Of a stretch of 64,000 nucleotides of DNA, positions 11,807 to 64,000 are shown piece by piece. Below the pieces are notes generated by a model. It was given only the letters and a program-made list of their open reading frames with translations. It was not told the DNA's origin and ran no database searches. The stretch comes from Betaproteobacteria bacterium. GTDB lineage: Bacteria; Pseudomonadota; Gammaproteobacteria; Burkholderiales; SG8-39. Made by a program: the position numbers and the translations under genes. Each line of letters begins with the position of its first letter. The first letter of the stretch is position 1. The DNA lies in contig CANJJT010000002.1 of assembly GCA_947474715.1 (NCBI GenBank), positions 47,500 to 111,499 of the forward strand, read 5' to 3'.

Positions 11807-14260
<2,454 letters not shown>

Positions 14261-14286
14261 ATCACTTCAATATCAGGCTCAGGGCC

Positions 14287-15262: not shown

Positions 15263-15320
15263 CCTCTCCCAATAACCAGTCTTGAAATCAGCTAATCGGC
15301 ATGTCGCAAGATGTAAAGCC

Positions 15321-15872: not shown

Positions 15873-15994
15873 GCCTGAATACCAGTATGGATTGTCTTGA
15901 TTCTTTCACATTTTCAGCCTCTCATGGAGATGCTCGGATAGACGCCGATGACGTTCCAGTAAAATGGAGGTTTATTCCCTTACTCAAAATCACC

Positions 15995-17722: not shown

Positions 17723-17730
17723 CCGACTCA

Positions 17731-18342: not shown

Positions 18343-18399
18343 CCGATGAGTAAGACGACTAATGTGGAGCATTCGAATCAAACTGCTGTCTCATTGAGT

Positions 18400-19205: not shown

Positions 19206-19227
19206 AGGTAAAAGATGATGGAGCTTC

Positions 19228-19953: not shown

Positions 19954-20496
19954 GATTAGGGTCCGGAATCTGCAGATAACGAGATTTTACTATTCTCCAG
20001 GCGTTCGAATTTGAAGCCGTCGGTGCAGACGAATTCAGATTGCCCACTCATCTACGATAACTTCGTGAAGACTCATCTGAAGCGCCTGATCCATCTGCAA
20101 GCCAACTTTGTTCATCAGAGAAGACAGCGAATCGTATGCAGGCTCCCTGGATAGACTTTCAGGGTTCGCCAGATAACTCCTTGCAATATCTGCAATCTTG
20201 TTGGACGGTGGATCACATAGCAGTGTCCACCCCCCGTTCTCAAGCCTTCCAACCCAACCATGCCTGGGCAGCCGGCTGAAGGAACGCAAGCAGGATCTCA
20301 TGGACAACCCCGAGCTGCTGGAACAGGCTGCTGCCGCAACACGCAGGAGCAAACCCAGCGCCGACAGCCAGGCACGATCACAGCGTTAGGCAGGGGACCT
20401 TCGCGACCCGGGGGCCCTCCCGAGACACCCCGCGCGCAGGCTCACCGTCGCGCGCGGGGTGGCGCACCACGCGATAGCCATCGGGCGCATCGACCG

Positions 20497-21690: not shown

Positions 21691-21715
21691 GGTCGTATCC
21701 TATTCGAATGAAACT

Positions 21716-21810
21716 CTGATCAAGTCTTGAATCGAGAATCGTCGTTCAAATGTTTCTCTGAAGTGAGGTATACCCAAGGGGGCCTAGCCCACTTGTTCAG
21801 TCCATCCCTG
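21716..21810. repeat. ~95-bp dispersed repeat, copy A (leader-like element)
   Basis: Aligns end to end (about 80% identity by eye) with 38518-38612. Starts CTGATCAAGT and contains the hairpin CAAGGGGGC-CTA-GCCCACTTG (21775-21795). The core ends 25 nt from the acyl-CoA dehydrogenase ATG. Confidence 0.8.
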
Positions 21811-21851
21811 ATAAAACACTCAAAAAGTTCCCATTCAAGGAAATAGGCAAA

Positions 21852-21918
21852 CAGTGTTTCTGCTGAAGTGGGATATGCAAGGGAAGCGGTTACGAGTCTG
21901 AGCCCGCTTGTTCTTCCT
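21852..21918. repeat. Partial third copy (A') of the same repeat
   Basis: CAGTGTTTCTGCTGAAGTGGGATATGCAAGGGAAGCGG..GAGCCCGCTTGTTCTTCC parallels the TGTTTCTCTGAAGTGAGGTATACCCAAGGGGGCCTAGCCCACTTGTTCAGTCC part of copy A, with an insertion in the hairpin. Confidence 0.6.
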
Positions 21919-22064
21919 TAATCTCAGGGTCTTGTTCGCCGGTCCTGACATGCGGCGCCTTCAGCTAAGGTTCTACCTTCGCTCCGCTCCAGCTCGCTCC
22001 GTCGATTGGAGACGAATCTTCACTTGCCAAGCTGTGCAAATCCCTGACGCCAGTTCTCATGCCC

Positions 22065-23039
22065 TTACTTGGGCACTATTCCCGCTTCTTTCAGAACCCG
22101 GCCCAAGTGAGCAACCTCATGTTGAATTCTCGCCCTGAGTTCTTCGGCTGTACTCCCTACCGGGTCCAGCCCTGCAGCAAGTAACTGTGCCTTTCCCTCG
22201 GGGCTGGCGATGAACCTCACGACTTCGCTATTGAGCCCCTTGATGATCGCATCAGGCGTTTTTGCAGGCGCAAACATGCCCACTATCGCAGCCGACTCAT
22301 AGCCAGGCAAACCGGAAGCCGCCATCGTATCCAGGCCCGGCGTCAAGGCAGAAGGACTCAGGCTCGTAACGGCCAGCGCTTTGACCTTCCCGGCCTTCCA
22401 CTGCGGCATGCCCAAGGGCACGGAAGTAAACATGAGATGCACTCTTCCACTCATTATGTCCGTCATTGCCTGACCCACCGCCTTGTAGGAGACTCGAGCC
22501 ACATCGACGCCCGCCATCGATTTGAACAGCTCACCGGCCAAGTGCGAAGCGGAGGCGGTACCGGGTGTGCCATAGTTGAGCACACCAGGCTTCTGCTTGG
22601 CCAGGGTGATCAACTCCTTAAGGGATTCAACAGGCAAAGATGGGGACACGATCAACATCTGTGGTGAGATCCCGACAAGGGTGATCGGCGAGAAGTCTCC
22701 CAGAGGATCGAAGGGCACGTCAGATTGAAAGAACTGGGTCACCCACAATGCATTGGTTGATATCAGCAAGGTGTGACCGTCTGGCTTAGCCCTGAAAACC
22801 CCTATTCCAGGAAGGACACCAGTTCCTCGATTCTCGACGATCACCGGATAAGAAAAATTCTTGCCTACCCCATGGGCGACTATACGAGAAATGACATCGC
22901 CGGACCCACCTGATCCAGTTGTCAGGATTCGAATGGGCTCACTGGGATAGGTTTGCGCGACGCTGATGTTCTGATGTAGCACACCAACCAACAGCACCAG
23001 AATGAAAACCAATGTGTGAAACATGATTTGCTCCTCCAA
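22065..23039 (-). CDS. Bug-family (TctC-like) tripartite tricarboxylate transporter substrate-binding protein, no. 1
   Basis: Signal peptide then QTYPSEPIRILTTGSGGSGD; NYGTPGTASASHLAGELF..VSYKAVGQAMTDIMSGRV are Bug hallmarks. Confidence 0.9.
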   Translation of the reverse strand: MEEQIMFHTLVFILVLLVGVLHQNISVAQTYPSEPIRILTTGSGGSGDVISRIVAHGVGKNFSYPVIVENRGTGVLPGIGVFRAKPDGHTLLISTNALWVTQFFQSDVPFDPLGDFSPITLVGISPQMLIVSPSLPVESLKELITLAKQKPGVLNYGTPGTASASHLAGELFKSMAGVDVARVSYKAVGQAMTDIMSGRVHLMFTSVPLGMPQWKAGKVKALAVTSLSPSALTPGLDTMAASGLPGYESAAIVGMFAPAKTPDAIIKGLNSEVVRFIASPEGKAQLLAAGLDPVGSTAEELRARIQHEVAHLGRVLKEAGIVPK

Positions 23040-23260
23040 AGTATCCTGACACTACTGTCCTGGACAACCGAAAAGCCGGTCTCAATCCGATGTGACTCAT
23101 AGAGGTAAGCCCCCGACTTGCCGGTGGACTCACCAAGGCCTGATCTTTCGAAGGTCTGCAGAAATTTCAATTCTTCGCCGGAAGAAAGCAAATTCATGCT
23201 GAAAGATTACCAGAGCTTTCGCCATACCGGGCACGGTCAACATTGGCCGAGACCAGACTG

Positions 23261-24286
23261 CTACTCCTGCAGCCGGATGCCATTGTCGTCCACCACCTTC
23301 TGCCAGCGCGCCGTCTCGGTGGCGATGAGCTGGCGGAACTGCGCTGGCGTGCTGCCCACTGCGGTGCTGCCCTCGGCCTCCAGGGCGGCCACCACCTCGG
23401 GCACCCGCGCAACCCTGGCGAAGGCCTCGCTCAGCTTGTTGACGATGGCCGGTGGTGTTCCCGCCGAGGCGATGAAGCCGATCCAGTTCGAGTAGTTGTA
23501 GCCAGGCACACCCTGCTCGGCCACAGTGGGCACCTCCGGCATCAGCCGGGAACGCTTGTCGTTGAGGATGGCAATGGGCCGCACCTTGCCCTGGCGGATG
23601 ATGGGCAGGGCCGCCACCAGCGTGCCCGAAGCCACATCGACGCGCCCGGCCACCAGTTCCAGCAGCAACGGCCCGGTGCCCTTGTAAGGGATGAAGGTGA
23701 CCCGGGTGCCGGTGGCGCCATGCATCCAGGCGCCCGCCAGATGGGTGATGCTGCCCGCGCCGGTGGTGCCATAGTTGATCTTGCCCGGGTTGGCACGCGC
23801 ATGGGCGATGTACTCGGGGAAGCTCTTCACCGGGAAGGACTCCGGCACCTGCAGCACCGAGGTGCGCTCGCTCATCAGCGACACCGGAGCGAAGTCCTTC
23901 ACCACATCGAAGCTCAAATCCTTGTAGAACGAGGGGAACACGGTGAAGCCGGCTGACACCACCATCAGCGTGTAACCATCGGGTTTCGCCCGCGCCACCA
24001 GCGCTGCGCCGATGGTGCCCGAGGCACCCGGCTTGAAATCCAGCACGAAGGACTGGCCCAGCATGGCGCCGATACGCGGGGTGTACAGGCGCGCTTCCAG
24101 GTCGATGGGACCGCCCGCCGCAATGCCCGCCACCACCATCACCGGCCGCGCCGGGTAGCCATCGGCCGCCTGCGCCTTCGCCGCGGGCGCCCAGCCTGTC
24201 GCTCCCGCGCCAAGGGTCATGGTCATAGTCAGTGCTGCAACAGCCCGGGGCGTCATCAGACAGGTCTCAAACCAGCAGGTCTTCAT
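23261..24286 (-). CDS. Bug-family substrate-binding protein, no. 2
   Basis: AADGYPARPVMVVAGIAAGGPID..INYGTTGAGSITHLAGAW..IPYKGTGPLLLELVAGRVD. Start ATG at 24286 (or 24256); the longer ORF-track N-terminus was rejected. Confidence 0.9.
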   Translation of the reverse strand: MKTCWFETCLMTPRAVAALTMTMTLGAGATGWAPAAKAQAADGYPARPVMVVAGIAAGGPIDLEARLYTPRIGAMLGQSFVLDFKPGASGTIGAALVARAKPDGYTLMVVSAGFTVFPSFYKDLSFDVVKDFAPVSLMSERTSVLQVPESFPVKSFPEYIAHARANPGKINYGTTGAGSITHLAGAWMHGATGTRVTFIPYKGTGPLLLELVAGRVDVASGTLVAALPIIRQGKVRPIAILNDKRSRLMPEVPTVAEQGVPGYNYSNWIGFIASAGTPPAIVNKLSEAFARVARVPEVVAALEAEGSTAVGSTPAQFRQLIATETARWQKVVDDNGIRLQE

Positions 24287-25449: not shown

Positions 25450-25518
25450 TAGGGGCATCAGCATTCCATATTGGTGACAAATGTGGCGGACGCTTAAGCT
25501 GCCGACAGTCGCAAGGAG

Positions 25519-26502
25519 ATGTCCATGCCCCACTTCAACTTCACCATCCGCTTGATGCGCAGACTGGCTGCCTGCACAGCTGGTGCGCTGCTCGCCACCA
25601 CTGCCTGGTCCCAGGCTTATCCGACCCGGCCTGTCACCCTGATTGCCGCCGAAGCCGGCGGTGCCAACGACATCCCCGCCCGGCTGATCGCCCAGGCCCT
25701 GTCGGGCCGGCTCAGCCAGCAGTTCGTCGTGGTGAACCGGCCCGGCGGTGTGGTCGCCGGCGGCCTGCTGGCGAAGGCCGCGCCCGACGGCCACACCCTG
25801 ATGTTCTACGGCAGCAGCATCTGGCTGCTGCCCTTCCTGCAGGATGGCGTGACCTGGGATCCGGCGAAGGATTTCGCCCCCATCACCCTCTCGTCCAGCT
25901 CACCCAACATGCTGGTGGTGAACAACGAGCTGCCGGTGGCCACGGTGCAGGAACTGATTGCCCTCGCCAAAGCCAGGCCCGGCCAGCTCAATTACGGTAC
26001 CGCCTCGGCGGGCTCGGGCAACCACCTGGCGGCGGAACTGTTCAAGATCATGGGTGGGGTGAATGTGGTGGGCGTGAAGTACAAGGGTGCCGCCCTGGCG
26101 CTCAATGACCTCATGGCCGGACGCCTGCAGTTCATGTTCCCCGCGGCCGCCTCGGTGAGCGGCCACATCAAGACCGGCAAGGTCAAGGCCCTGGCCGTCA
26201 CCAGCCTCAAGCCCTCGCCACTGGCGCCGGGCCTGCCGACCGTGGCATCGGCCGGACTGGCCGGCTACGAATCCCGCCAGGTGCACGGCATCTTCGCCAC
26301 CGGCGGCACGCCCGCCTCCATCATCAATCGCCTGAACCAGGAAATCATCGCCTACCTCTCCCTGCCCGAAACCCGGGAACGCTTTCAGGGTATCGGTCTG
26401 GAAACCGTGGGCTCCACACCGGAGGAGTTGTCCGCCGTGGTGAAGAAGGACATGGCGGTGCTGGGCAAGCTCATCAGGGATTTGGCGATACGGATCGAGT
26501 GA
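25519..26502 (+). CDS. Bug-family substrate-binding protein, no. 3
   Basis: QAYPTRPVTLIAAEAGGANDI..LNYGTASAGSGNHLAAELF..VKYKGAALALNDLMAGRLQ. Confidence 0.9.
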   Translation: MSMPHFNFTIRLMRRLAACTAGALLATTAWSQAYPTRPVTLIAAEAGGANDIPARLIAQALSGRLSQQFVVVNRPGGVVAGGLLAKAAPDGHTLMFYGSSIWLLPFLQDGVTWDPAKDFAPITLSSSSPNMLVVNNELPVATVQELIALAKARPGQLNYGTASAGSGNHLAAELFKIMGGVNVVGVKYKGAALALNDLMAGRLQFMFPAAASVSGHIKTGKVKALAVTSLKPSPLAPGLPTVASAGLAGYESRQVHGIFATGGTPASIINRLNQEIIAYLSLPETRERFQGIGLETVGSTPEELSAVVKKDMAVLGKLIRDLAIRIE

Positions 26503-35768: not shown

Positions 35769-36818
35769 ATGAGCATCCACACCATCAAACCCGCTGACTG
35801 GATGGACGACGACTGGGAGCGCTCGCAGGCCGCGCTCGAGGGCATGGGCGACGGACTGCCGCTGGTGGTGCCCACCCCCGCCCGGGTGGAAGCCATGCTG
35901 AAGGCAGTGGGCGCCAATGGCAGCGAGGCGATCGCCGTGCTGGCCCCGGCCTTCGGCGAGGCCACCTGGCGCAATGTCGCCGAGAACGCCGTGATGGCGG
36001 GCTGCCTGCCTGAATACCTGCCGGTGGTCGCCGCCGCTGCAGCGGCAGTGGCGAAGGATGAATACAACCTGCTCGGCATCCAGACCACCACCGGCAATGC
36101 CGCGCCCATGCTCATCGTCAACGGCCCTGTCGCCCTGCGCATCGGCATGAATGCCGCCGGCAATGCGCTCGGGCCGGGCAACCGCGCCAACGCCACCATC
36201 GGCCGCGCCCTGCGCCTGGTGCTGCAGAACGTCGCCGGTGCCAAGCCGGGCGAGATGGACATGGCCACCCTTGGGCATCCGGGCAAGTACACCTGCGCCT
36301 TTGCCGAGAACGAAGCCGCCAGCCCCTGGCCGCCTTTCCACACCACGCGCGGCTACACCCGCGAGCAGAGCGTGGTCACCGTGCTGGGCTGCTCCGGCTT
36401 CATCGAGGTGGTGGACTCCACCAGCGCCAAACCGGAAGACCTGATCCGCACCTTTGCCAGCTCCATGGTGTTCGCCGGCAGCGTCGGCCAGACCGGCATC
36501 GTCGCCAGCGGCCAGCCCCTGCTGATCATGCCGCCCGAACACGCCGAGCATTTCCACCGCGAAGGCTGGTCACGCGAGGACGTGCAGGCCGCGCTGCTGC
36601 GCGAAGCCACGCTGCCGCTGGAACGGCTGTCGCCCGCGGTGCGGCAACGCATCACCGAACATCGCGCCAGTACCGGCGAGGACATCGGCGCGCCGGTGCA
36701 TATCGCGCACGAGGCGAAGGACATCCTCATCGTCGTCGCGGGCGGCCCCGGCGTGAAGGCGGCCTATGTGCCGACCTGGAGCGGGTCGAAGGCCGTGAGT
36801 CAGCTGATCCGCACGTGA
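35769..36818 (+). CDS. Conserved protein of unknown function; paralog of the C-terminal domain of the UGSC fusion protein
   Basis: 349 aa from ATG 35769 (AGGAAGGGAAG upstream). Shares the blocks NAVMAG, LLGIQTTT, GRALRLVLQNVAGAKPGEMDMATLGHPGKYTC..AENE, PPEHAEH and ILIVVAGGPG with 42425-43500 (minus strand). Confidence 0.8.
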   Translation: MSIHTIKPADWMDDDWERSQAALEGMGDGLPLVVPTPARVEAMLKAVGANGSEAIAVLAPAFGEATWRNVAENAVMAGCLPEYLPVVAAAAAAVAKDEYNLLGIQTTTGNAAPMLIVNGPVALRIGMNAAGNALGPGNRANATIGRALRLVLQNVAGAKPGEMDMATLGHPGKYTCAFAENEAASPWPPFHTTRGYTREQSVVTVLGCSGFIEVVDSTSAKPEDLIRTFASSMVFAGSVGQTGIVASGQPLLIMPPEHAEHFHREGWSREDVQAALLREATLPLERLSPAVRQRITEHRASTGEDIGAPVHIAHEAKDILIVVAGGPGVKAAYVPTWSGSKAVSQLIRT

Positions 36819-36926
36819 TGCATGCCGGGATACGCGCCGAACCCGGGCAGTGAAGCCGATAAAATCTGGCGCAATATAGTGCGTCGGCGTGCGCTAATAG
36901 AACGCCTCCCACTTCGGAGAATCCCC

Positions 36927-37913
36927 ATGACCACCCCATCCCGAACCCTCCTGCAGGCCACGCTGGGCGCAGCCGTTGCCAGCGGGATCCTCACCGCCCC
37001 CGCCCACGCTCAGACCGGCTATCCCAATCGCCCGGTGCGCGTGGTGGTGCCCTTCGTGCCCGGCGGCAGTACCGACATCATCGGCCGCACGGTGGCGCAG
37101 AAGCTGAGCGAGGCCTGGGGCCAGTCGGTGCTGGTGGACAACCGCGGCGGCGGGGCGACCATCATGGGCACGGAGATCGTGGCCAAGGCGCCCCCTGACG
37201 GCTACACGCTGCTGATCGCCTCGGCTTCCTTCACCACCAAAATGAGTCTGGTGGACAAGCTCCCCTACGACACGCAGGCCGACTTCACGCCAATCACCCT
37301 GATCAACACCACGCCGCTGGTGCTGGTCGTGTCGCCCAACAGCCCGGCGAAGACGGTGAAGGACCTGATCGCGCTGGCAAAGGCCAAGCCCGGCCAGTTG
37401 AATTACGGGTCGTCAGGGATGGGCGGGTCCAACCACCTGTCAGGGGAATTGTTCGCCGCCATGGCCGGCATCCAGGCCTCGCATGTGCCCTACAAGGGCA
37501 ATGCGCCGGCGCTCACCGACCTGATGGGCGGCCGCGTTGATTTCATCTTCAATGGCGCCACCGCCGTGATGCCGCTGGTCAAGGCGGGCAAGCTGCGCGC
37601 CCTGGGCGTGACCAGCCGCGAACGCGCGGGCGCGGCGCCGGACCTGCCCACCATGGACGAATCCGGACTCAAGGGCTATTCGGCCGTGGCCTTCAATGGC
37701 ATCGTCGCTCCGGCCAGGACGCCGCGGGACATCATCGCCAGGATCAATGCCGATGCGGTGAAAGGCATCCAATCCGCCGATACCCGCGAGCGCCTGAAGG
37801 CCGACGGCTCCGACCCGGTGGGCAGCACGCCCGAACAGTTCGCCGCCTTCCTCAAGGAGGAGATGGGCAAGTGGGCGAAGATCATCAAGGACAACGGGAT
37901 CAGAGGCGAGTGA
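36927..37913 (+). CDS. Bug-family substrate-binding protein, no. 4
   Basis: AQTGYPNRPVRVVVPFVPGGSTDI..LNYGSSGMGGSNHLSGELF..VPYKGNAPALTDLMGGRVD. Confidence 0.9.
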   Translation: MTTPSRTLLQATLGAAVASGILTAPAHAQTGYPNRPVRVVVPFVPGGSTDIIGRTVAQKLSEAWGQSVLVDNRGGGATIMGTEIVAKAPPDGYTLLIASASFTTKMSLVDKLPYDTQADFTPITLINTTPLVLVVSPNSPAKTVKDLIALAKAKPGQLNYGSSGMGGSNHLSGELFAAMAGIQASHVPYKGNAPALTDLMGGRVDFIFNGATAVMPLVKAGKLRALGVTSRERAGAAPDLPTMDESGLKGYSAVAFNGIVAPARTPRDIIARINADAVKGIQSADTRERLKADGSDPVGSTPEQFAAFLKEEMGKWAKIIKDNGIRGE

Positions 37914-41004: not shown

Positions 41005-41994
41005 TTACTCCCCGACGATCCCCAGGTCGGTGATCAGCTTGCCCCAGGCAGCCCGCTCCGACTGCAGGAAGGCGGTCAGTTGCTCCGGTGTGCCGCCGGT
41101 CACTTCCAGCCCCAGCTTCTCCGTCTGCGCCCGGTAGGACGGCTTGTTCACCGCGGCATTGCCCGCGGCATTCATGCGCGAAACGATGGCGGTCGGCAGC
41201 CTGGCTGGCGCGACGATGCACCAGAAGGTGTAGGTGGTGAAGCCCTTCAATCCGGCCTCGGTGAAGGACGGCACATCAGGCAAGGCTGCAACACGCTTGT
41301 CCGAAGAAATGGCGAGGATACGCAGCTTGCCTGAACGCACCTGCTCCGACAGTTGCAGCGGATGGCCGAAGGTCATGTGGATCTGCCCGGCGAGCAGGTC
41401 GGTGAGCGCAGGACCGGTGCCCTTGTAGGGAATGTGCACCAGGTGGATGCCCGCCATGTGCTCGAACATTTCGCCGGCCAGGTGACTGCCGGTGCCCACG
41501 CCGGCGCTGCTGTAGTTGAACCTGCCCGGCCCGGCCTTGGCGAGCGCAATGAACTCACGCAGGTTCTTTGCCGGCACCTGCGGATTCACGTACAGGGCCA
41601 GGCCGTTGCGCGTGAGATTGACCACCGAGGTGAAATCCCGGTCCGGGTCATAGGGCAGGGTCTTGCCGGCGTTCTTCGCCAGATAGGGTGCCGAAATCAG
41701 GCTGCCCGCCGCACCGAACAGGAAGGTGTAGCCATCGGGTGTGGCGCGCGCCACCAGTTCCGAGCCGACCGATCCGCCTGCGCCAGGCCGGTGCTCCATC
41801 AGCACCGACTGCCCGAGTTCCGTCGTCAGCAGGTCCACCACGGGACGCATCACCACGTCGCCGATGCCACCGGCGGCAAAGGGCATGACGATGCGCACCG
41901 GCTTCTGCGGCCAGGTCTGGGCCTGTGCGGGCTGCAGTGCTGCGAGGCTGAGTGCGAGGACGGCGAAGGCGCTGCGGATGTGGATGCGGGTCAT
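41005..41994 (-). CDS. Bug-family substrate-binding protein, no. 5
   Basis: Start MTRIHIRS (AGGAGGAAGC upstream). AQTWPQKPVRIVMPFAAGGIGD..FNYSSAGVGTGSHLAGEMF..IPYKGTGPALTDLLAGQIH. Confidence 0.9.
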   Translation of the reverse strand: MTRIHIRSAFAVLALSLAALQPAQAQTWPQKPVRIVMPFAAGGIGDVVMRPVVDLLTTELGQSVLMEHRPGAGGSVGSELVARATPDGYTFLFGAAGSLISAPYLAKNAGKTLPYDPDRDFTSVVNLTRNGLALYVNPQVPAKNLREFIALAKAGPGRFNYSSAGVGTGSHLAGEMFEHMAGIHLVHIPYKGTGPALTDLLAGQIHMTFGHPLQLSEQVRSGKLRILAISSDKRVAALPDVPSFTEAGLKGFTTYTFWCIVAPARLPTAIVSRMNAAGNAAVNKPSYRAQTEKLGLEVTGGTPEQLTAFLQSERAAWGKLITDLGIVGE

Positions 41995-42424: not shown

Positions 42425-44065
42425 TTACTTGAAATCCCCCGGCAGCCATGGGCTGCCATCGGGTTTCAGTACTGCCCTGGTCACCGAGCGCGTGCCGCCG
42501 AAGGTGGGGACGTACATGGAGTGTTTGCCGGTGCCGCCGGCCACCACGATCATGAAATCCTCCCAGCGTTGCGCCAGCGGTACACCGGTGTCCAGCGGCC
42601 GGTCCTTGAAGCGCTTGGGCAGGTAACGGCGCAGGCGGCGCTCGATCTGCTCGGCCGAAAAATGCGACAGCGGGATGCGCGCGTCCTCGTAGAAGGCACG
42701 CCGCACATCGTCCTTGGAGTAGCCATCCTTGGCGATGGTCCCGGCATGCTCGGGCCCGAGCAGCACCAGTGGTTCGCCAGCATGGTTGACGTTGTTCTGC
42801 CCGGTCTCGGTGATGGTGTGACCGATCATGGTCAGCAGGCCGCCGGCATTGGTGCTGTCGTGGTCGTTGATGTTGTGCGGGGCTTCCGCACCGATCATGG
42901 TCACGGTGCTCACCTCAGGCGCAAAGCCGCGCTCGGCGCGCAGCGACGGCCAGGTGGCCGGCAGCGCCGCCTCGTTCTCGGCAATGCAGTAGGTGTACTT
43001 GCCCGGATGACCCATGGTGGCCTTGTCCATCTCCACCGGCTTGGCGCCACCGATATTGAGCAGGATGAGGCGTATGGCGCGCCCCACCACGCCATTGGAC
43101 CAGGGGCCGGGGCCGAACAGGCCGCTGCCCGAATGAATGCCCAGGGTCTCGGCCAGCGGTCCGCTCACCAGCATCAGCGGCGCCACGCAGTGCGTGGTGC
43201 CCTGGATGCCGTAGAGATTGAACTGTTCCTCGACCATGCCCTGCACCGCGGCGATGATGAGCGGCATGTGCTGCGGCTTGGCACCGGCCATCACCGCATT
43301 GGCAGCGATGCATTCGATGGTGGCCACTCCCATCTTGGGCGCCATCACGGCCACCACATGGCTGCCCGGGTAACCGGAGGCCTGCACCATGGCGCTGACA
43401 CGCGCCTCGGTGGGCGGCGCGGCCAGCATGCCATCGCTCCAGCCGCGCGCCATGAATTCCTGTTGCAGCGCGCCCCATTCGTCGCTGATGTCCAGATCCA
43501 CCCATTCGCTGCGCACCTTGACCTCTTCCACCAGCGGGGCCGGCAGCGGCGAGGTGAGCTTGGCGATGAGTTCCTCGTAGACCGCGTCGATCTTCGCGAT
43601 CACATTGGGCACCGGCAGGCCGCCCAGCGGGTGCGGCATGATCGCCGCCTGCAGGTTGGGCAGGCCGAACACGCGCGACTGGTTGCGCGCCAGCGCCGTG
43701 AAAGGCGTGGTCATCAGCAGCACGGCGGGTACGCCGCGCTTTTCCATCTCTACGGCGTCGTGGACACTCCACGACGTGCAGGAGCCTCAGTCGCCGAAGC
43801 CGGTGATGACGACGTCGCAGTTATCCTGCAGGGATTGCAGCATCGCCGGGGTGGCCGGCATGGAGGCGGCGTTCTTGGAGACGTAGTGGCTCTGCATGCC
43901 CGGGAAGCTCTCGCGCAGGCGACGGTCGAGGTGCTCCATGACGCGGTCAGCCGGGGGCTTGGTGTTGTCGAGAAAACCGATGCGCAGACCCTGCAGCGAC
44001 TTCGGCCGTGCCACCGCAGTAACTTTCGAGGGCTGTAACTGCGCCTCGGGTGAACAGATTCTCAC
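42425..44065 (-). CDS. Putative selenoprotein: UGSC-motif domain fused to a ~350-aa domain of unknown function (in-frame UGA at 43787-43789 read as Sec)
   Basis: GTG start at 44065 with AAGGAG 5 nt upstream. ...DVVITGFGD-TGA-GSCTSWSVHDAVEMEKRGVPAVLLMTTPF... is continuous in one frame, 546 aa in total. A SECIS-like hairpin lies 10 nt 3' of the TGA. The ORF track splits it into 43787..44065 and 42425..43747. Confidence 0.7.
43756..43776 (-). promoter_or_regulatory. SECIS-like stem-loop
   Basis: The mRNA reads UGA-GGCUCCUGCA-CGUCGUGG-AGUGU-CCACGACG: a perfect 8-bp stem and a 5-nt loop containing GU, starting 10 nt after the UGA. Confidence 0.6.
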
Positions 44066-44205
44066 ATTGACTCCTTTTTGCTCGATGGTTTGATGTCCGG
44101 GGTCAGCAGGGCCGTGCGGGACGGACCTGCCGCTATGGCAGCGAACGCAGATTTGCGTTCACGCTGCGAAGACCCGCCCTGCAGGCGCGGGCCGGCGGTG
44201 TGGCC

Positions 44206-45423
44206 TCAGGCCACCTTCCGCACCGCCGGCCGGTCGGCACGGCCGGTGAGTTCCGGGTCGACATGGCGTAGCAGCACGCTGGAATCGATTTCATCCACGG
44301 TGTTGCAGCCGATCTGGCCCATGGTGCGCGTGATTTCCTCCCGGTACAGCTGCAGCGCGCGAGAGGCGCCCGCGTAACCGGCTGCGGCCGTGCCAAACAA
44401 CGTGCCCCGTCCGACCAGCACCAGGTCCGCGCCCATGGCCAGGGCCTTGACGATGTCGGTGCCGCGGCGAAAGCCGCTGTCCACGATCACCGTGGTCTTG
44501 TGGCCCACCGCCTTGATGATGGAGGGCAGCACCTCGATGGGCGTGGGCGCCGAATCGAAATTGCGCCCGCCGTGGTTGGACACGATGACGCCGTCGGCGC
44601 CCTGCTCCAGGGACATCTCGGCATCGTCCGGATGCAGGATGCCCTTCACCAGCAGCTTGCCCGGCCACATGTCGCGCAGGGCCTTCAGGTCTTCCCAGTT
44701 GAGCGTGTCATTGCGCGTCTCGCCGCCATTGCCGTATTCGGAGGTAATGCGGCCGCGCAGTTCGGCCGGAAAATTCTCCCGCTGCGGCATGCCACCGTTG
44801 GCGATGTAGCGGCCCAGGCAGCCCAGCATCCAGCGTGGGTGGGTGAGCACATCCAGGGTGTTCTTGCGGTTGTAGCTGAAGGGCACGGAAAAGCCGTTGC
44901 GCCGGTTGTACTCGCGGTTGCCCGCCACCGTGCCGTCCACCGTCACCAGCAGCGCCTCGAAGCCGGCGGCGGCGGCGCGCTTGACCAGCTGGTGGGAGAG
45001 CGAGCGGTCCTTCCACATGTACAACTGCATCCACAGCGTGCCGCCCACCTCGTCACGGATCTGCTCCATGCTGGTGATGGAGCCAGTGGCCAGGGAGAAC
45101 GGAATGCCGGCATCGCGCGCGGCCTTGGCCAGCTCGAGCTCGCCCTTGTACCACATCATCCCGGCCACGCCGGTGGGGGCGATGGCGATGGGCATGTTGA
45201 TCGGCTTGCCGAAGATGGTGGTCTTGGGGCTGCGCTTGGACACATCGCGCAGCATGCGCGGCACCAGGCGGATGTTGTCGAACACCTCGCGGTTGTGGCG
45301 CAGGATCACTTCGTCTTCAGTGCCGCGGTCGACGAATTCGAACAGCCACTTGGGCAGGCGCTGCTTGGCCATGTCACGCAGGTCAAATATGTTCTGTGCA
45401 TCTGCCGGATCAGGAAAAAACAT
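44206..45423 (-). CDS. FMN-dependent alpha-hydroxy-acid dehydrogenase (L-lactate / mandelate dehydrogenase-like)
   Basis: Start MFFPDPADAQNIFDLRDMAKQRLPKWLFEFVDRG (GGAGG 5 nt upstream). VIVSNHGGRNFD and DSGFRRGTDIVKALAMGA motifs. The upstream 262 codons of the 667-aa ORF were rejected. Confidence 0.88.
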   Translation of the reverse strand: MFFPDPADAQNIFDLRDMAKQRLPKWLFEFVDRGTEDEVILRHNREVFDNIRLVPRMLRDVSKRSPKTTIFGKPINMPIAIAPTGVAGMMWYKGELELAKAARDAGIPFSLATGSITSMEQIRDEVGGTLWMQLYMWKDRSLSHQLVKRAAAAGFEALLVTVDGTVAGNREYNRRNGFSVPFSYNRKNTLDVLTHPRWMLGCLGRYIANGGMPQRENFPAELRGRITSEYGNGGETRNDTLNWEDLKALRDMWPGKLLVKGILHPDDAEMSLEQGADGVIVSNHGGRNFDSAPTPIEVLPSIIKAVGHKTTVIVDSGFRRGTDIVKALAMGADLVLVGRGTLFGTAAAGYAGASRALQLYREEITRTMGQIGCNTVDEIDSSVLLRHVDPELTGRADRPAVRKVA

Positions 45424-45751: not shown

Positions 45752-48031
45752 ATGACCGCCACTGACCAGACACCCGCAGCAACGCCTGCGCTCACCACAC
45801 CAGCGCCTGCACCAGCCCCCGGCCCGGCCTCTGCCGGACCAGGCAAACTGACCAATGACCTGTGGGGCGGCCTGGCGGCCATGCTGGTCGCCCTGCCCTC
45901 GGCCATCGCCTTCGGGGTGGCGACTTTCGCCGCCCTGGGCGAAGGCTTCGCCGCCCAGGGCGCGCTGGCCGGGATGCTGGGTGCCACGGCCCTGGGCCTG
46001 GTGGCCTCGGCCTGGGGCGGGGCACCGCGCCTGATCAGCGCACCGTGCGCACCGGCCGCGGCAGTGCTCTCGGCACTGGCACTGGAACTGTCGCAGCGCG
46101 GCGCGGAAGCCCCGGAGATCATGCTCATGCTGCTGGTGACCGCGGCGCTGGCCGGCGGCCTGCAGATCCTGTTCGGCACCGTGGGCCTGGGCCGGCTGAT
46201 CAAGTACATGCCCTACCCCGTGGTGAGCGGCTATCTGAGCGGCGTGGGCCTCACCATCATCCTCAGCCAGATTCCCAAGCTGCTGGGCGCCCCCACCGGG
46301 GCCAGTTGGCAGGAAGCGCTGGCGCTGCCTTCGGTGTGGACCTGGCAGGCGGCCGCGGTGGGCGCCATCACCATCGCCGTGATGATGCTGGCCCCGCGCC
46401 TGACCAAGGCAGTCCCTGCCGCGATCCTGGCGCTGGTGGCCGGCGTGCTGGCCTACTTCTCGTTCTCGCTGCTCGACCCGGCGCTGCTGCAGTTGCGCAA
46501 CAACCCGCTGGTGATCGGCCCGATGGGCGGCGAGGGTCCGGGCTTCATGGATACGCTGACCATGCGCTGGAAGGCGGCGGAGACCCTGGGCTGGTCGCAG
46601 CTGGCCCAACTGGCCGTGCCGGCGATGACGCTGGCAGTGCTGCTCTCCATCGACTCGCTGAAGACCTGCGTCGTGCTGGATGCCATGACCCGCTCGCGCC
46701 ATGACTCCAACCGCACCCTCATCGGCCAGGGCCTGGGCAATCTCGCCTCCGCAGCAACCGGCGGCGTGCCGGGTGCGGGCACCATGGGCGCCACGCTGGT
46801 CAATATCGCCAGCGGCGGACGCACCCGCTGGTCCGGCCTCATCGAAGGGGCGCTGGCGCTGCTGGCCTTCCTGCTGCTCGCTCCGGTGCTCGCCTGGGTG
46901 CCCATCGGTGCGCTGGCCGGCATCCTGATCGTCATCGGCATGCGCATGCTCGACCGCGACAGCCTGCATTTCCTGAGGTCACGCCAGACCATGCTGGACT
47001 TCGCCGTGATCGCAGCCGTGGTCATCGTCGCGCTGACGGTCGGCCTGATCGCCGCCTCCGGCACGGGCATCCTGCTGGCCATCGCCCTGTTCGTGCGTGA
47101 GCAGGTCGGCGGCGCGGTGGTGGCGCACAAGGGCTATGGCAACCGCATGTTCTCCAAGCGCGTGCACACCACCGAGGAAATGGAAATCCTGGAGAAGCAG
47201 GGCGAACAGACTGTGGTCTTCGAACTGCAGGGCAGCCTGTTCTTCGGCACCACTGACCAGCTCTACACAGCGCTCGAGCCGGAACTGGCAACGCACCGCC
47301 ACCTGATACTCGACTTCCGGCGCGTGCAGTCGGTGGATGTCACCGCCGTGCACCTGCTGCAGCAGATCGAGGACCGTCTGGCCGAGCGCGGCGCGCAACT
47401 GCTGTTCAGCAACGTGCCCAAGCGCGTGCCCAGCGGACGCGACCTGCACCAGTATTTCCAGGAGGTCGGCCTGGCGAAGTCCACGGGCGTGGAAAGCCAT
47501 GCGCACGTCTTCGATGAACTGGATGACGCACTGGAGTGGGTGGAAGAGCGGCTGATCGAGGAGGCGCATGTGGCGCAGGCCCGGGAAAAGCCGCTGGAAC
47601 TGCGCGAGATCGACCTGTTCGCACGGCGCAAGCAGGACACGCTGGCGGCGCTGGAAGCCTGCATGGAAGCCCGCGCCTGCAAGGCGGGCGAGCGCATCTT
47701 CGCGCGCGGCGATACCGGCGACGAGATCTACCTGATCCGGCGCGGCGCGGTGCGCATCATGCTGCCATTGGCGGACGGCCGCAGCCACCACCTGGCCACC
47801 TTCGGCCGCGGCTCCTTCTTCGGCGAGATGGCCTTCCTCGACCAGCAACCGCGCTCGGCCGAAGCAGTCGCCTTCACCGACTGCGATCTGTATGTGCTGT
47901 CACGGCAGCGTTTCGACGCACTCGTGGAGTCCCACAAACGCCTGGGCCTGGGCATGATGGAAGGTCTGGCACGGGTGCTCTCGGCGAGGCTGCGACATGC
48001 CGATGCCGAGCTGAATGCACTGGAGGGGTAG
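45752..48031 (+). CDS. SulP-family anion transporter with STAS domain and C-terminal cyclic-nucleotide-binding domain
   Basis: Polytopic SulP core (..LIKYMPYPVVSGYLSGVGLTII..), STAS (VVFELQGSLFFGTTDQL..LILDFRRVQSVDVTAV), cNMP-binding (IFARGDTGDEIYLIRRGAV..FFGEMAFLDQQPRSAEAVA). Confidence 0.88.
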   Translation: MTATDQTPAATPALTTPAPAPAPGPASAGPGKLTNDLWGGLAAMLVALPSAIAFGVATFAALGEGFAAQGALAGMLGATALGLVASAWGGAPRLISAPCAPAAAVLSALALELSQRGAEAPEIMLMLLVTAALAGGLQILFGTVGLGRLIKYMPYPVVSGYLSGVGLTIILSQIPKLLGAPTGASWQEALALPSVWTWQAAAVGAITIAVMMLAPRLTKAVPAAILALVAGVLAYFSFSLLDPALLQLRNNPLVIGPMGGEGPGFMDTLTMRWKAAETLGWSQLAQLAVPAMTLAVLLSIDSLKTCVVLDAMTRSRHDSNRTLIGQGLGNLASAATGGVPGAGTMGATLVNIASGGRTRWSGLIEGALALLAFLLLAPVLAWVPIGALAGILIVIGMRMLDRDSLHFLRSRQTMLDFAVIAAVVIVALTVGLIAASGTGILLAIALFVREQVGGAVVAHKGYGNRMFSKRVHTTEEMEILEKQGEQTVVFELQGSLFFGTTDQLYTALEPELATHRHLILDFRRVQSVDVTAVHLLQQIEDRLAERGAQLLFSNVPKRVPSGRDLHQYFQEVGLAKSTGVESHAHVFDELDDALEWVEERLIEEAHVAQAREKPLELREIDLFARRKQDTLAALEACMEARACKAGERIFARGDTGDEIYLIRRGAVRIMLPLADGRSHHLATFGRGSFFGEMAFLDQQPRSAEAVAFTDCDLYVLSRQRFDALVESHKRLGLGMMEGLARVLSARLRHADAELNALEG

Positions 48032-50644: not shown

Positions 50645-52258
50645 TCAGGAGCTGCAAGACAGAGCCGAGCAGCCCGGACGATTGCGCGCCCATTCCGGAC
50701 GACGGGCGGCCAGCAACGCTTCGTCTGGCTGTTCATCATAGGGATGGCGCAACACCCGCATCAGCCTTTCCAGGGGCCCGGCATCCCCCGCAGCCAGCGC
50801 ATCGATGGCCTGCTGCGCCAGATAGTTGCGCGGAACGTATTTTGGATTGACCCGGTCCATGTGGGCGCGCCGCACGGCCGCCGGTAGCGCCTCTGCCGCC
50901 GCCCGCTGCAGGTATTGCCGCAACCAGCCGGTCAGTTGCCCGGCGTAGTCGCCCTCCAATACGGTCGGCAGGTAGAGCGCCGGCCGGATGCAGTCGATCA
51001 GCGCAGCATCCTCCACCTCGCCATCGGGCAGGCGTGACAGCGCGCGGAAGAACAGCGTCATGTCGGTCTCGGTGGCCTGCAGCAGCTTGAACAGGCCGTC
51101 GATCAGCGCCTCGTCCCCCGGACGATCCAGCCCGGCGACACCCAGCTTACCGGCCAGCATGCGCGCCGACTCGCGCTCGAAGGTATCGGCAAACACCGTC
51201 AGCCCGTGTTCCAGCGGTGCGGTGCCCTGCATCAGGGGCAGCAAGGCATTGGCCAGGCGCACCAGGTTCCATTGCGCGATGTGCGGCTGGTTGCCGTAGC
51301 AGTAGCGGCGTCCCGGGAGGTCGGTGGTATTGGGCGTCCAGTCCAGTTCGTAGCCCTCCAGCCAGCCATAGGGGCCGTAGTCGATGGTGAGCCCGAGGAT
51401 GGACATGTTGTCGGTGTTCATCACGCCATGCACGAAACCCACACGCATCCATTCCGAGACCATCACCGCGGTGCGCCGGCACACTTCGGCAAACCACTGT
51501 GCATAGACCTCGGGCGAAGGCGTGCCCAGCTCCGGGTAGTGGCTGGTGATGACGAAGTCGGCCAGCTGGCGCAATAACTGCAGTTCCTGCTGCGCTGCGA
51601 ATATCTCGAAATTGCCGAAGCGGATGAAGCTGGGCGCGACACGACAAACGATGGCGCCGGGCTCGGCCTCGGGGCGCCCGTCATAGAACATGTCGCGCAC
51701 CACGGGGTCGCCCGTGCCCACCAGGCTGAGGGCACGCGTGGTGGGCACGCCCAGGTGGTGCATGGCCTCGCTGCAGAGGAATTCACGCACCGAGGAACGC
51801 AGCACCGCGCGCCCGTCGGCGGTGCGGGAGTAAGGCGTGGGGCCCGCCCCCTTCAGCTGCATTTCGTAGTGACGGCCATCGGCGCCCTCGAGTTCGGCCA
51901 GGGTGATGGCACGTCCATCGCCCAGCTGGCCGGCCCAGTTGCCGAACTGATGGCCGCCATAGCGCGCGGCAAACGGCTGCATGCCGGAGAGCACGCGATT
52001 GCCACCCAGCACTTCGGCGGCGGCACCTGTGGCAGCCGGTCGAGCCAGTCCCAGCAGGGCCGCCGCCTCATCCGACCACGCGAGCAGTTGCGGGGCAGCT
52101 ACCGGCGTGGGTGTCACCAGGGTATACCCGGCATTGCGCACCTGACGCGGGCGGTTGTCGGCCAGCGGATCCCCCGGCAGCGCCTGCACGAAACCGTTCT
52201 CCCAGCTGTCGATGCTGGCAAGCTCGCGTGCAATTTGTACGGGGGTGATCTGGTTCAC
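50645..52258 (-). CDS. selO: Protein adenylyltransferase SelO (YdiU/UPF0061)
   Basis: [45 protein letters not shown]; C-terminus ..CSALSCSS (Cys, not Sec). Confidence 0.9.
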
Positions 52259-52286
52259 TGCGATGTCTCCGAAGATGGCCTGGGCA

Positions 52287-53879
52287 TTATCCCTGCCTGA
52301 GGGGGATTGCGCTGCTGTCGTTCGGTGCGGCGCCGGTGACGACCGTCGGTGGCGTGGACGGCTGCGACTGTACTGCCGGGCGGGCCTCGGCAGCGGGCGC
52401 CGCCAGGTTGCGCGAGCGCCAGGCCAGCAACAAGGTCAGCGCGCCGGCCAGGCAAACGCCCCAGAACACCCAGTGCAGCCCGCCTGCCAGCCCCTCGCGC
52501 AACACTGCCAGCACCGCCGGGTCGGCAGCCGTTCGGGCCGGGCCTGACGCGGCAGGCAGTCCGCCCAGCAGTTGCTGCAGGTCATCCACGCCCAGCCGCC
52601 CGGCCCAGCCTTCGCGCTCCAGATGGCGCTGCACCATGACATTGAGCAGGCCGCCGAACAGGGCTGAGCCCACCGCGTTGCCCAGCATGCGCATCAGCAT
52701 GTTCGAGGCGGTGGCCGCACCGCGCTGGGTCCAGGGCACACTGGACTGTATGGTGATCATGAAGGTGATGCTGATGGTGCCCATGCCGGCCCCCAGCAGC
52801 ACCGCGCCCAGGGTGAGCAGCGTCACCCCGGTGCTGAACTGTACCGCCAGCGCAATCACCAGGCTGCCGAAAAACACGGCCACGCCGCCGATGCGGGCCA
52901 GGCGGCGGGCGCCCACCCGCACCAGCAACCGGCCTGCCACCACCGTAGCGATGGGCCAGCCGATCGACATGGCCGACAGCGCAAAGCCGGCGCGGATGGC
53001 CGAGGCGCCCAGCACCCCCTGGGCAAAGGTCGGCACGAAGGTCACGACCCCGGCAATCACCACGCCCGAGAGCAGCGTGGTGGCATTGGCCACGGCGATG
53101 AGCGGCGTTCGCCACAGCTCGAAATTCACCACCGGCTCCGCAGCGCGGCGCTCCTGGCGCACGAACAACACCGCGCAGACCACGAACACCAGTCCGAGCA
53201 CCGCCAGGCCCGCCGGCCCGAGGTCGCCGGCGTGGGTGAGGCACAGCATCAGCGAGGACAGCCCGGCCAGCAGCAGCACCGCGCCGGGGTAATCGACCTG
53301 CACGCGCCGGTGTGACACATCCTCGTGCAGGCAGGTAGCAATGATGAAGACGGCGACGATGCCGAAGGGCACATTCACCCAGAACACCCAGGACCAGTCG
53401 ACGTACTGCACGATGAGCGCCCCGGCCAGCGGGCCGACGATGGCCGACACCCCCCAGACGCTGGCCACATAGCCCTGCACACGGCCGCGCTCCTCGATGG
53501 GATAGAGGTCGCCGATGAGCGTCATCGCCAGGGGCACCACGGCACCGCCGCCAATGCCCTGTATCAGCCGGAACACCACCAGCGAGGGCATGGACCAGGC
53601 GATGCCGCACAGCACCGAGCCGGCGATGAACATGGCCAGCCCGAACAGCAGCACGCGCTTGCGCCCGAACAGATCGGAGAGCTTGCCGTACACCGGCACG
53701 GTCACCACCTGCATCAGCAGGTAGGAGGAAAACACCCAGCTGTACAGCGACATGTCGCCAAGGCGCGCCACGATGGTCGGCATGGAGGTGGCCACGATGG
53801 TCGCCTCGATGGCGCCCATGAACATGGACATGATGACGGCACCCAGCACCAGCGGCCGCCGCGTTTGCTTGCTGATCAT
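52287..53879 (-). CDS. MFS transporter, 14-TM DHA2 (EmrB-like) type
   Basis: MISKQTRRPLVLGAVIMSMFMGAIEATIVATSMPTI.., GKLSDLFGRKRVL motif A. Start at ATG 53879. 28 nt upstream of selO on the same strand. Confidence 0.85.
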   Translation of the reverse strand: MISKQTRRPLVLGAVIMSMFMGAIEATIVATSMPTIVARLGDMSLYSWVFSSYLLMQVVTVPVYGKLSDLFGRKRVLLFGLAMFIAGSVLCGIAWSMPSLVVFRLIQGIGGGAVVPLAMTLIGDLYPIEERGRVQGYVASVWGVSAIVGPLAGALIVQYVDWSWVFWVNVPFGIVAVFIIATCLHEDVSHRRVQVDYPGAVLLLAGLSSLMLCLTHAGDLGPAGLAVLGLVFVVCAVLFVRQERRAAEPVVNFELWRTPLIAVANATTLLSGVVIAGVVTFVPTFAQGVLGASAIRAGFALSAMSIGWPIATVVAGRLLVRVGARRLARIGGVAVFFGSLVIALAVQFSTGVTLLTLGAVLLGAGMGTISITFMITIQSSVPWTQRGAATASNMLMRMLGNAVGSALFGGLLNVMVQRHLEREGWAGRLGVDDLQQLLGGLPAASGPARTAADPAVLAVLREGLAGGLHWVFWGVCLAGALTLLLAWRSRNLAAPAAEARPAVQSQPSTPPTVVTGAAPNDSSAIPLRQG

Positions 53880-62965: not shown

Positions 62966-64000
62966 CTATTCGATGACCAGACCGATCTGTTTCACCAGTT
63001 TCGAATAGGTCTCGAATTCAGCCTGGTATGCCCTGGCCCCGTCCTCAGGCGAGCTGGCGATGATGTTGTAGCCATTGGCGGAGACCTTGGCGGCCAGGTC
63101 CGGTGAGCGCAGCGCCTTGACGATGGCTGCGTTGAGCTGGTTCACCAGCGCGGTCGGAGTGGCCGAGGGAACCAGGTAGTAATTCCGGGTGGCCGCACCG
63201 TTGACGCCCAGGGTTTCACGCATGGTGGGGATGTCCGGCAGGCTGTCCCAGCGTCCCGAGGAGCTCACCGCCAGCGGGCGCACCTTGCCTGACTTGATGT
63301 GCGGGCGAATGGTGTTGTCGACAAAGGCAAAGTCGACCTGCTCGCCCAGCAGCGCGGTCGCCGCCTCGGAGGTGCCCTTGTAGGGAACATGCACCCCCTT
63401 GGCCTGCGCGGCCAGCAGGACCATTTCAGCATTCAGGTGCTGGGTGCCGCCCAGGCCGGTCGAGCCGAAGGTGAGCTGCCTGGGGGATTTGCGTGCAATT
63501 TCCAGCAGGTCCTTGATGGAACGTGCCTCCGAGGAGGCTGGAACGGCCAGGATGCTGGGCACCTCGGTCAGCCAGGACACCAGGGTCAGGGTCTTCAGGA
63601 TATCCAGGGGATATTCCTTCAGGCTGGCGGCCGCGGTGAGCATGGAGGAATAGGTGCTGAGGATGGTGTAGCCATCCGGCGCGGCCCTGGCGACGATGCC
63701 TGCGGAGATGGCAAAAGCGCCGCCGGGCCGGTTCTCGACCAGCACCGGCTGCCCCCAGAATTCCGACAGCTTGCCGGCCATCAGGCGGGTCTGCGTCTCG
63801 GCGCCGCCGCCGGGCGCATACGGAATGACCAGCCGCACCGGCTTGACGGGAAAGGTCTGCGCGCTGGCACTGGCCGGAAACACCGCTGGCAGGGCCAGGG
63901 GCATCATCAGGCCCAGCAGGCATGCGCGCCACCGGCCCCGTCGCCCCGTACCGACTTTTTCACTGAAACGCTGCAAGGCTTTGTGCCTGAACTGTGTCAT
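62966..64000 (-). CDS. Bug-family substrate-binding protein, no. 7 (start codon at the window edge)
   Basis: AQTFPVKPVRLVIPYAPGGGAE..LTFGSTGLGGTQHLNAEMV..VPYKGTSEAATALLGEQVD. ATG at 63998-64000. Confidence 0.88.
   Translation of the reverse strand: MTQFRHKALQRFSEKVGTGRRGRWRACLLGLMMPLALPAVFPASASAQTFPVKPVRLVIPYAPGGGAETQTRLMAGKLSEFWGQPVLVENRPGGAFAISAGIVARAAPDGYTILSTYSSMLTAAASLKEYPLDILKTLTLVSWLTEVPSILAVPASSEARSIKDLLEIARKSPRQLTFGSTGLGGTQHLNAEMVLLAAQAKGVHVPYKGTSEAATALLGEQVDFAFVDNTIRPHIKSGKVRPLAVSSSGRWDSLPDIPTMRETLGVNGAATRNYYLVPSATPTALVNQLNAAIVKALRSPDLAAKVSANGYNIIASSPEDGARAYQAEFETYSKLVKQIGLVIE

Follow-up and report, generated by a model that had tools for sequence, protein, structure and literature searches.

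A UGSC-type selenoprotein gene split by gene callers encodes a predicted two-domain unit with remote similarity to the selenocysteine region of GrdB and PrdB

Does a TGA codon at positions 43787..43789, on the minus strand of a betaproteobacterial contig, end a short gene, or does it encode selenocysteine (Sec, U) within a long one? The contig (CANJJT010000002.1, assembly GCA_947474715.1) was analysed over a stretch of 64,000 nucleotides, referred to here as the window, in which two minus-strand open reading frames (ORFs) lie on either side of the codon. An earlier note on this DNA had joined the two into a single selenoprotein of the UGSC type, and profile matches that cross the TGA, homologs with Cys in its place, and a TGA and hairpin kept in 76 related gene copies all support that proposal. 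Judged from its sequence, 42425..44065 on the minus strand is a single gene for a predicted 546-residue selenoprotein, which gene callers split at the Sec UGA. The reading that we favour overall, and hold to be probable, is that of a UGSC selenoprotein that forms a two-domain unit with an inferred mechanism of the reductase type.

The complete gene begins with GTG at 44065, and a Shine–Dalgarno sequence, AAGGAG, read directly from the DNA at 44071..44076 (minus strand), precedes it with a 5-nt spacer. Its N-terminal ORF comprises 92 codons and ends ...DVVITGFGD, followed by the TGA at 43789-43787, which would encode U93 in the motif D-U-G-S-C-T-S-W (codons 92–99). Thirteen sense codons (GSCTSWSVHDAVE) separate this TGA from an ATG at 43747 without a change of frame, and the stretch spanning U93 reads ...VVITGFGD-U-GSCTSWSVHDAVEMEK. 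The frame remains open through to a TAA at 42427-42425, giving a read-through product of 546 residues including U93. Orthologs keep the N terminus, MRIxxPEGQ. The earlier note had described two minus-strand ORFs in one frame and 13 codons apart, a strong AAGGAG before the upstream GTG, and a U-G-S-C motif right after the TGA; the sequence, the ORF list and a one-frame translation agree with it on each point, with GSCTSW following the TGA. TGA is the stop codon of 19 of the 28 window genes, so that recoding here would be local and the genetic code standard. A scan of the window for coding pairs joined by an in-frame TGA found no second selenoprotein candidate.

The sequences on both sides of the codon belong to one conserved domain. 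With Cys in place of U, residues 4–171 (43553..44056, minus strand) matched PF24696, 'UGSC family', at E 3.6e-47 (161.1 bits against a cut-off of 25). NF041046, 'UGSC family (seleno)protein', scored 128.8 bits with the full protein and 132 bits with the domain alone, against a cut-off of 125, and the matches to both models run across the TGA. By sequence, the window gene is a typical, ordinary member of the UGSC family, with which it shares the N-terminal 170 residues, the U-G-S-C motif, a predominance of Sec with few Cys forms, and a hairpin after the UGA. It differs from the curated models, which describe only a domain of ~150–170 residues, in that its protein carries a further domain of 357 residues.

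A database search with the read-through protein returned 3270 homologs, mostly of ~430 residues and called from start codons past the TGA. Six full-length homologs (533–581 residues, covering 92–96% of the query) read GDCGNCTSW or AECGSCTSW where the window reads GD-TGA-GSCTSW; their Cys lines up with the TGA and the chain runs on past this point without a break, as the earlier note had anticipated for Cys homologs. Met107 of the window protein is unconserved and the called starts of the truncated forms vary (403–448 aa, with different first residues), so that there is no conserved downstream initiation site. Homologs that consistently end at the TGA, followed by a separately started gene, would have spoken against a single protein; what we found instead were full-length Cys homologs and unconserved starts.

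These results bear on the alternative in which the TGA is a true stop, the locus producing a 92-residue peptide and a separate 440-residue protein from the ATG at 43747. Public gene callers do give 92-aa and ~434-aa products, both matching PF24696, a database entry with 100% identity (P0001) is 440 aa long, and TGA is the usual stop codon here. Yet one Pfam domain covers both pieces, the Cys homologs are continuous, the downstream Met is unconserved, and the TGA and its hairpin are kept across phyla; we regard a true stop as extremely unlikely.

To place the codon in a wider context, GTDB was scanned with one genome per species, which turned up 584 stretches that code for a relative; 77 loci were retrieved. 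Their sources were metagenome-assembled genomes (MAGs) of Betaproteobacteria/Burkholderiales (57–77% identity) together with Rokubacteria/Methylomirabilota, Binatia, Entotheonella, Syntrophaceae and others (38–47% identity). Each of the 76 related gene copies whose sequence extends over the site has TGA there (the sequence of locus L072 starts downstream of the site and is outside this count), and several MAGs hold two to four TGA-containing paralogs of the selenoprotein gene. From one window alone, the TGA might be a sequencing error or an inactivating mutation in a pseudogene, but the same codon at the same position in all 76 copies, from independent assemblies and with intact flanking coding sequence, effectively refutes this explanation; we give it a vanishingly small probability, and even together with a true stop it amounts to very little. 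A phmmer search with the 92-residue fragment against 1.84 billion representative sequences found 349 relatives. The best 150 of the 349 comprise 142 that stop precisely where the TGA stands and eight Cys forms, seven of them stand-alone (148–187 residues) and one fused (549 residues).

Ten nucleotides past the UGA, at 43756..43776 on the minus strand, lies a putative selenocysteine insertion sequence (SECIS), a hairpin with an 8-bp stem and an AGUGU loop that reads CGUCGUGG-AGUGU-CCACGACG from 43776 to 43756. It has the position, the perfect stem and the GU in the loop that had been claimed for it. The folding check that had been suggested gave a divided answer: RNAfold predicts the hairpin, but the folding z-score of the 71-nt stretch is only −0.96, no better than shuffles. 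This score is unremarkable and the single sequence is therefore no proof of structure, a claim that is carried by comparative evidence. The expected conservation among orthologs was found in full, with GUCGUGG-xGUxU-CCACGAC 3' of the TGA in all 76 copies covering the site and the seven inner pairs (43757-43775) kept in all relatives. When pairs were counted in 77 aligned sequences (67 distinct), with 500 shuffles as a control, standard pairs occupied 94% of stem cells and the seven inner pairs were essentially always formed. Compensatory changes from G-C to A-U occurred at two pairs (ACA...GAU, six distinct sequences; UCA...CAU, one), and the observed count of cells with double changes was reached by none of the 500 shuffles.

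Most stem pairs are invariant, which in itself is uninformative on structure, but it is at synonymous sites that variation is missing. The hairpin spans the codons for T-S-W-S-V-H-D, and third-codon-position entropy is 0–0.6 bits from codon +4 to codon +10, compared with 1.1–1.7 bits in the flanking codons −4 to −2, +1, +2 and +11 to +15 (the two-fold codons Asp −1 and Cys +3 are lower than these flanks, at 0.88 and 0.35 bits). At Ser +5, TCG is used by 75 of 76 sequences; at Ser +7, all of 70 use AGT and none AGC or TCN; and the loop codon +8 is always NTC, whether it encodes V, I, L or F. This pattern across relatives shows strong selection on the predicted SECIS element. The hairpin is absent from the Cys homolog at locus L082, where the codons differ, and no Rfam family matched the window hairpin. 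The general bacterial SECIS model places the loop 16–37 nt from the UGA, and the distance from UGA to apical loop in the window is 18 nt. As in bacterial SECIS elements such as that of Escherichia coli fdhF, the hairpin lies in coding sequence just 3' of the UGA and keeps G-U in the apical loop; it differs from the fdhF type in its shorter stem and in having no bulged U. On these sequence comparisons we are almost certain that the UGA is decoded as Sec by way of a downstream SelB-binding hairpin with a 7–8-bp stem and an xGUxU loop.

A gene for SelB was found beside orthologs in two betaproteobacterial MAGs. In L003, selB (about 10142-12185, plus strand) lies directly downstream of the ortholog on the same strand and scores 393.8 bits with TIGR00475 against a cut-off of 242; in L010, selB (about 3283-5320, plus strand) was assigned by its clustering with the L003 copy and by the same N-terminal GTPase sequence start. 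An upstream ORF of 500 residues in L003 was considered as SelA and dropped, as its sequence looks by eye like an HlyD-type secretion protein. ARAGORN also reported a 79-nt 'tRNA-Lys (ctt)' inside the L003 selB (10419-10497, plus strand), which is probably a false positive and not tRNA-Sec.

How does the second domain relate to the first? The earlier note had treated the fusion as exceptional in a family that is normally stand-alone, and as possibly the first clue to its function, and neither view can be kept. Fused genes form the majority: 60 of the 76 TGA genes continue for 405–480 codons past the TGA, and the remaining 16 stop 79–106 codons past it and have a separate ORF for the C-terminal domain directly next. 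Four distinct stand-alone Cys-type UGSC genes, on five contigs (L092, L093, L094/L095 and L096), were looked at, and each adjoins a gene that encodes the C-terminal domain, often with an overlap. Every UGSC locus that we examined encodes both domains, either fused or side by side. Because they are always encoded together, we conclude that the two would work as one unit; pairing in every locus shows, at the level of gene organization, a single functional unit, and we also count in its favour the pTM of 0.86 of a predicted full-length model (described below).

The fusion is also not new. Zhang and Gladyshev 2008 (PLoS Genet, PMC2398784) depict a 'UGSC/Unknown_1 fusion' in Figure S1A, and describe Unknown_1 as a conserved domain of unknown function with a conserved Cys that also occurs alone in aquatic organisms. 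The C-terminal domain of the window protein is probably Unknown_1: the description fits, as the window domain has C360 and belongs to a family with stand-alone members, one of them from GOS.

Can the UGSC domain itself be linked to a known chemistry? An AlphaFold2 model was made from P0093, a full-length Cys homolog that is 41% identical to the window protein and stands in for it (mean predicted local distance difference test score (pLDDT) 86, predicted template modelling score (pTM) 0.86). The N-terminal domain is predicted to be a five-strand beta-alpha repeat of flavodoxin-like alpha/beta fold, with the C-x-x-C that corresponds to U93-x-x-C96 where the helix that follows strand 3 begins. 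Its Foldseek neighbours are weak and comprise the flavodoxin- or Rossmann-like NagZ C-domain, FtsZ, SurE, MdaB and SpaF. A thioredoxin fold around the UxxC was considered and not found, the model being flavodoxin-like instead; the structural matches behind this are weak and indicative only. In this our model departs from the 2008 paper, which assumes a thioredoxin-like fold (PMC2398784).

A more specific relation came from sequence. When 20 diverse UGSC domains were scanned against NCBIfam, 16 matched TIGR01917, glycine reductase selenoprotein B (best E 1.2e-7), eight matched GrdF (NF040794; best E 1.4e-6), six TIGR01918 (best E 2e-5), four GrdH (best E 0.0027) and three PrdB (best E 0.0098). 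The GrdB-type matches always involved residues 79–149 of the UGSC domain and model positions ~333–397 of 431, a stretch that presumably holds the Sec of GrdB (near residue 350). What is shared with GrdB, GrdF, GrdH and PrdB (TIGR01917, NF040794, NF040795, TIGR01918 and TIGR04483) is thus a region of ~65 residues around the Sec/UxxC together with an HP-x-G motif after it; in both systems, too, substrate binding falls to a partner separate from the Sec-x-x-Cys centre. The UGSC protein lacks the remainder of GrdB and the scores are far under the family cut-offs, and UGSC hosts are betaproteobacteria, Rokubacteria and similar organisms, in contrast to the Stickland-fermenting clostridia of GrdB and PrdB. 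These matches show the UGSC domain to be remotely homologous to the GrdB/PrdB Sec region without belonging to the family, a link that is new here.

The fold and these relatives bear on a second alternative, in which the UGSC domain serves only as a generic disulfide reductase of the thioredoxin-like kind, keeping Cys360 of the C-terminal domain reduced and performing no substrate chemistry of its own. The UxxC is read as a thioredoxin-like redox motif in the 2008 paper (PMC2398784), and a Thioredoxin_2 protein that follows a stand-alone paralog of the C-terminal domain (L089, 7107-8111, plus strand) suggests interchangeable thiol-redox partners; this neighbour was not found among the 77 fetched loci. 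Against such an accessory role, the domain is predicted to be a parallel alpha/beta flavodoxin-like sandwich and no thioredoxin fold, and its sequence relatives are GrdB and PrdB. Sec is, moreover, strongly preferred over Cys (142 of the best 150 representatives, and 255 against 21 in GOS as given in PMC2398784), which argues for demanding chemistry at the U93 position. We consider an accessory reductase unlikely.

The C-terminal domain (residues 190–546; ~357 residues; 42428..43498, minus strand) represents a family without a Pfam or NCBIfam model. Neither these residues nor a stand-alone paralog of the domain in the window gave a Pfam or NCBIfam match at E<=10, the domain matched none of the models for GrdE/PrdA-, GrdA-, GrdC/D- or trxB/trxA-type partners at the same threshold, and a sequence profile search of the PDB yielded only a chance-level match (5o15, AmbC, E 0.4). 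The window's own C-terminal domain was modelled with a pLDDT of 90.7 and a pTM of 0.90. Foldseek searches of the PDB with this model returned borderline matches to class I fumarate hydratase and to cyclic amide hydrolases of the Toblerone fold (E 6e-4 to 9e-4, probability 0.77–0.82), for which TM-scores were 0.19–0.30 and root-mean-square deviations (rmsd) 14–18 A. The likeness is one of local 3Di similarity only, and, as modelled, the fold is without a convincing PDB relative; the borderline matches are no evidence for a shared fold or function. Membership among class I fumarate hydratases or iron-sulfur hydro-lyases was considered and rejected (TM-scores 0.26–0.30, no Pfam match, one conserved Cys): the domain differs from class I fumarate hydratase in lacking both a profile match and the cluster-binding Cys triad.

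The paralog (35769..36818, plus strand; 349 aa, 38% identical, E 1e-77) lies immediately before a gene for a TctC substrate-binding protein (36819..37913, plus strand; PF03401, 6.2e-76). A search for this stand-alone family gave 7952 matches, all annotated 'hypothetical' and without a Pfam domain, one of them a GOS sequence. Two points are new here: the very large size of the family to which the C-terminal domain belongs, and the frequent presence of such a paralog alongside the UGSC module. In 25 of the 74 fetched loci with the site, and in the window too, an orphan paralog is found no more than a few kb from the UGSC module. It is convergent and just after a TctC gene in the two orthologs with 77% identity (L001 and L002), and convergent also in an unrelated soil contig set (L084); in Rokubacteria it is downstream on the same strand and, in about nine loci, directly after the fused gene. 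The idea that the paralog at 35769-36818 is a second subunit is possible, though somewhat doubtful.

Residues of the C-terminal domain were compared in 61 fused, 15 split and 26 orphan copies. D211, G212, N256, N324, R329, R332, D347, K356, E363, N364, E439 and H440 are common to all three kinds; Q288, H292, C360, N398, N400, D401, H402, N424, K514 and H515 occur only in UGSC-linked copies, and the window paralog is without their His/Cys set. From this distribution, the UGSC-linked residues are the natural candidate for a site that would work with U93 and C96.

The same residues allow a different alternative, in which U93, C96 and C360, together with H292, H402 and H515, serve as ligands of a metal or iron-sulfur centre and the protein is hydro-lyase-like and not a redox enzyme. 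It would suit the predominance of His, Cys, Asn and Asp among the residues specific to UGSC-linked copies, the best, if weak, fold matches to class I fumarate hydratases (7xky_A, E 6e-4; 6uoi_A, E 6.7e-4, probability 0.80) and the MmgE/PrpD dehydratase-family genes near some loci. But the TM-scores of those matches are 0.26–0.30 with rmsd above 15 A, there is no fumarase or tartrate dehydratase Pfam match at E<=10, and C360 is replaced in four of the 15 split copies. In GrdB and PrdB, the relatives of the UGSC domain, Sec acts as a nucleophile and not as a metal ligand, and resolution through a selenenylsulfide has been proposed. We hold a metal centre to be improbable.

What surrounds the gene? 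A TctC/Bug substrate-binding protein of the tripartite tricarboxylate transporter type is encoded ~430 nt downstream and co-directionally (41005..41994, minus strand; PF03401, 4.3e-69), and a co-directional TctC gene directly follows the selenoprotein gene, often without a gap, in at least nine other betaproteobacterial loci (10 with the window). A major facilitator superfamily (MFS) transporter of the organic-anion type neighbours the module in 30 loci, and other recurrent neighbours are a CaiB-type coenzyme A (CoA)-transferase, enoyl-CoA hydratase, acyl-CoA dehydrogenase, acyl-CoA synthetase, short-chain dehydrogenase/reductase (SDR) and MmgE/PrpD. This set is suggestive of a usual organic-acid catabolism setting. 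Upstream, 140 nt away and co-directional, is a gene for a flavin mononucleotide (FMN)-dependent alpha-hydroxy-acid dehydrogenase (44206..45423, minus strand; PF01070, 1.5e-130); it was seen otherwise only beside the 77% ortholog L002, and its linkage is weak because it is common only to these two. In the window itself there are four TctC/Bug genes within 64 kb (25498-26502, plus; 36819-37913, plus; 41005-41994, minus; 62966-64000, minus), which is typical of Burkholderiales. In L090 a TrxB-like flavoprotein with a CAHC motif (7045-7980, minus strand) overlaps the 3' end of a divergent UGSC fusion with the motif C-U-G-S-C-T-P.

How these parts might act together can be outlined as follows. A neighbouring transporter of the TctC, MFS or tripartite ATP-independent periplasmic (TRAP) type would import a small organic acid, which the C-terminal domain would bind as a carboxylate through its conserved Arg, Lys, Asp, Glu and His residues. 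The selenolate of U93 would attack or reduce this substrate, C96 would resolve the intermediate with formation of an Se-S bond, as in GrdB and PrdB, and a cellular thiol reductase would re-reduce that bond. By analogy, the protein probably functions as a selenol/thiol reductase whose substrate is a carboxylate brought in by such a transporter. The whole scheme, with a carboxylate bound by the C-terminal domain, U93 as nucleophile or reductant and C96 resolving, is tentative and should be taken as one candidate that may well prove wrong. We are more reserved still about the widest version, which is rather unlikely as it stands: that UGSC domain, C-terminal domain and paralog make up an unrecognised GrdB/PrdB-like selenoenzyme of aerobic freshwater and soil bacteria that reduces an imported organic acid.

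Several observations weigh against the favoured reading of a Sec-dependent, GrdB/PrdB-like reductase. The C-terminal domain is without an informative homolog, so that substrate and chemistry are guesses, and the match to full-length GrdB reached 16.6 bits against a cut-off of 602.2 and extended over ~65 residues only. The scanned window neighbours and the recurrent neighbour clusters included no GrdE/PrdA pyruvoyl partner, GrdA or GrdC/D. TctC genes abound, with four in the window, which makes their adjacency weak evidence, and a TrxB-like reductase as a general redox partner had to be rejected, as it was seen only in L090 and a BLAST search of the 77 loci did not recover it. Finally, no selA, selB, selC or selD was found in the 64-kb window with Rfam, ARAGORN and Pfam on 20 selected ORFs, a scan that left out ~10 further high-GC ORFs and the low-GC stretch at 2.4–24.4 kb; the only tRNA in the window is a tRNA-Pro.

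UGSC proteins were first described as a 'UGSC-containing protein' in marine metagenomes and are among the most abundant selenoproteins of aquatic metagenomes. In the 2008 paper, UGSC is the top selenoprotein family in most non-marine GOS samples (PMC2398784), and the family is still listed without a function in reviews from 2022 and 2026 (the latter PMC13188914). The value of the present finding lies in the comparative picture, comprising the constant domain pairing, the link to GrdB and PrdB, the adjoining carboxylate transporters and the large partner family. The pairing with an unannotated domain gives a usable lead to UGSC function and defines a testable unit of two or three proteins. If the selenoenzyme reading were true, it would provide a function for an abundant aquatic selenoprotein family and for a Pfam-less family of thousands. 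Public gene calls split the Sec forms into fragments of ~92–105 and ~430 residues with arbitrary starts (for example, L078 7659-9305 and L084 6116-7773). Every public gene call that we saw for a Sec form was split in this way, which means that the annotations of a widespread gene are systematically wrong in hundreds of genomes.

We also observed a small protein of ~80 residues, with the motif G-A/V-C-x-D/E-C-L-x-P-K and no Pfam match, encoded beside Cys-type UGSC modules (L082 1520-1762, L083 1429-1665, L092 279-536, L093 827-1084 and L096 1719-1967). Using tblastn, none was found in the 77 Sec-type loci or in the window, and the protein may be an extra redox partner required only where Cys replaces Sec.

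Three further features of the window were recorded. From about 4000 to 24000 the GC content is 53–59%, compared with 63–70% elsewhere, and from 2351 to 24415 no ORF start passed the filter for high GC at third codon positions; this 20-kb stretch, which contains the tRNA-Pro gene (10086-10162, minus strand), may be a horizontally acquired island. A gene for a SelO-family protein adenylyltransferase lies at 50648-52435 (minus strand; PF02696, E 2.5e-126), with no in-frame TGA flagged; the name SelO derives from the eukaryotic selenoprotein O. Divergent from the FMN dehydrogenase gene, 45752-48031 (plus strand) encodes a SulP-family permease with a STAS domain and a C-terminal cyclic-nucleotide-binding domain.

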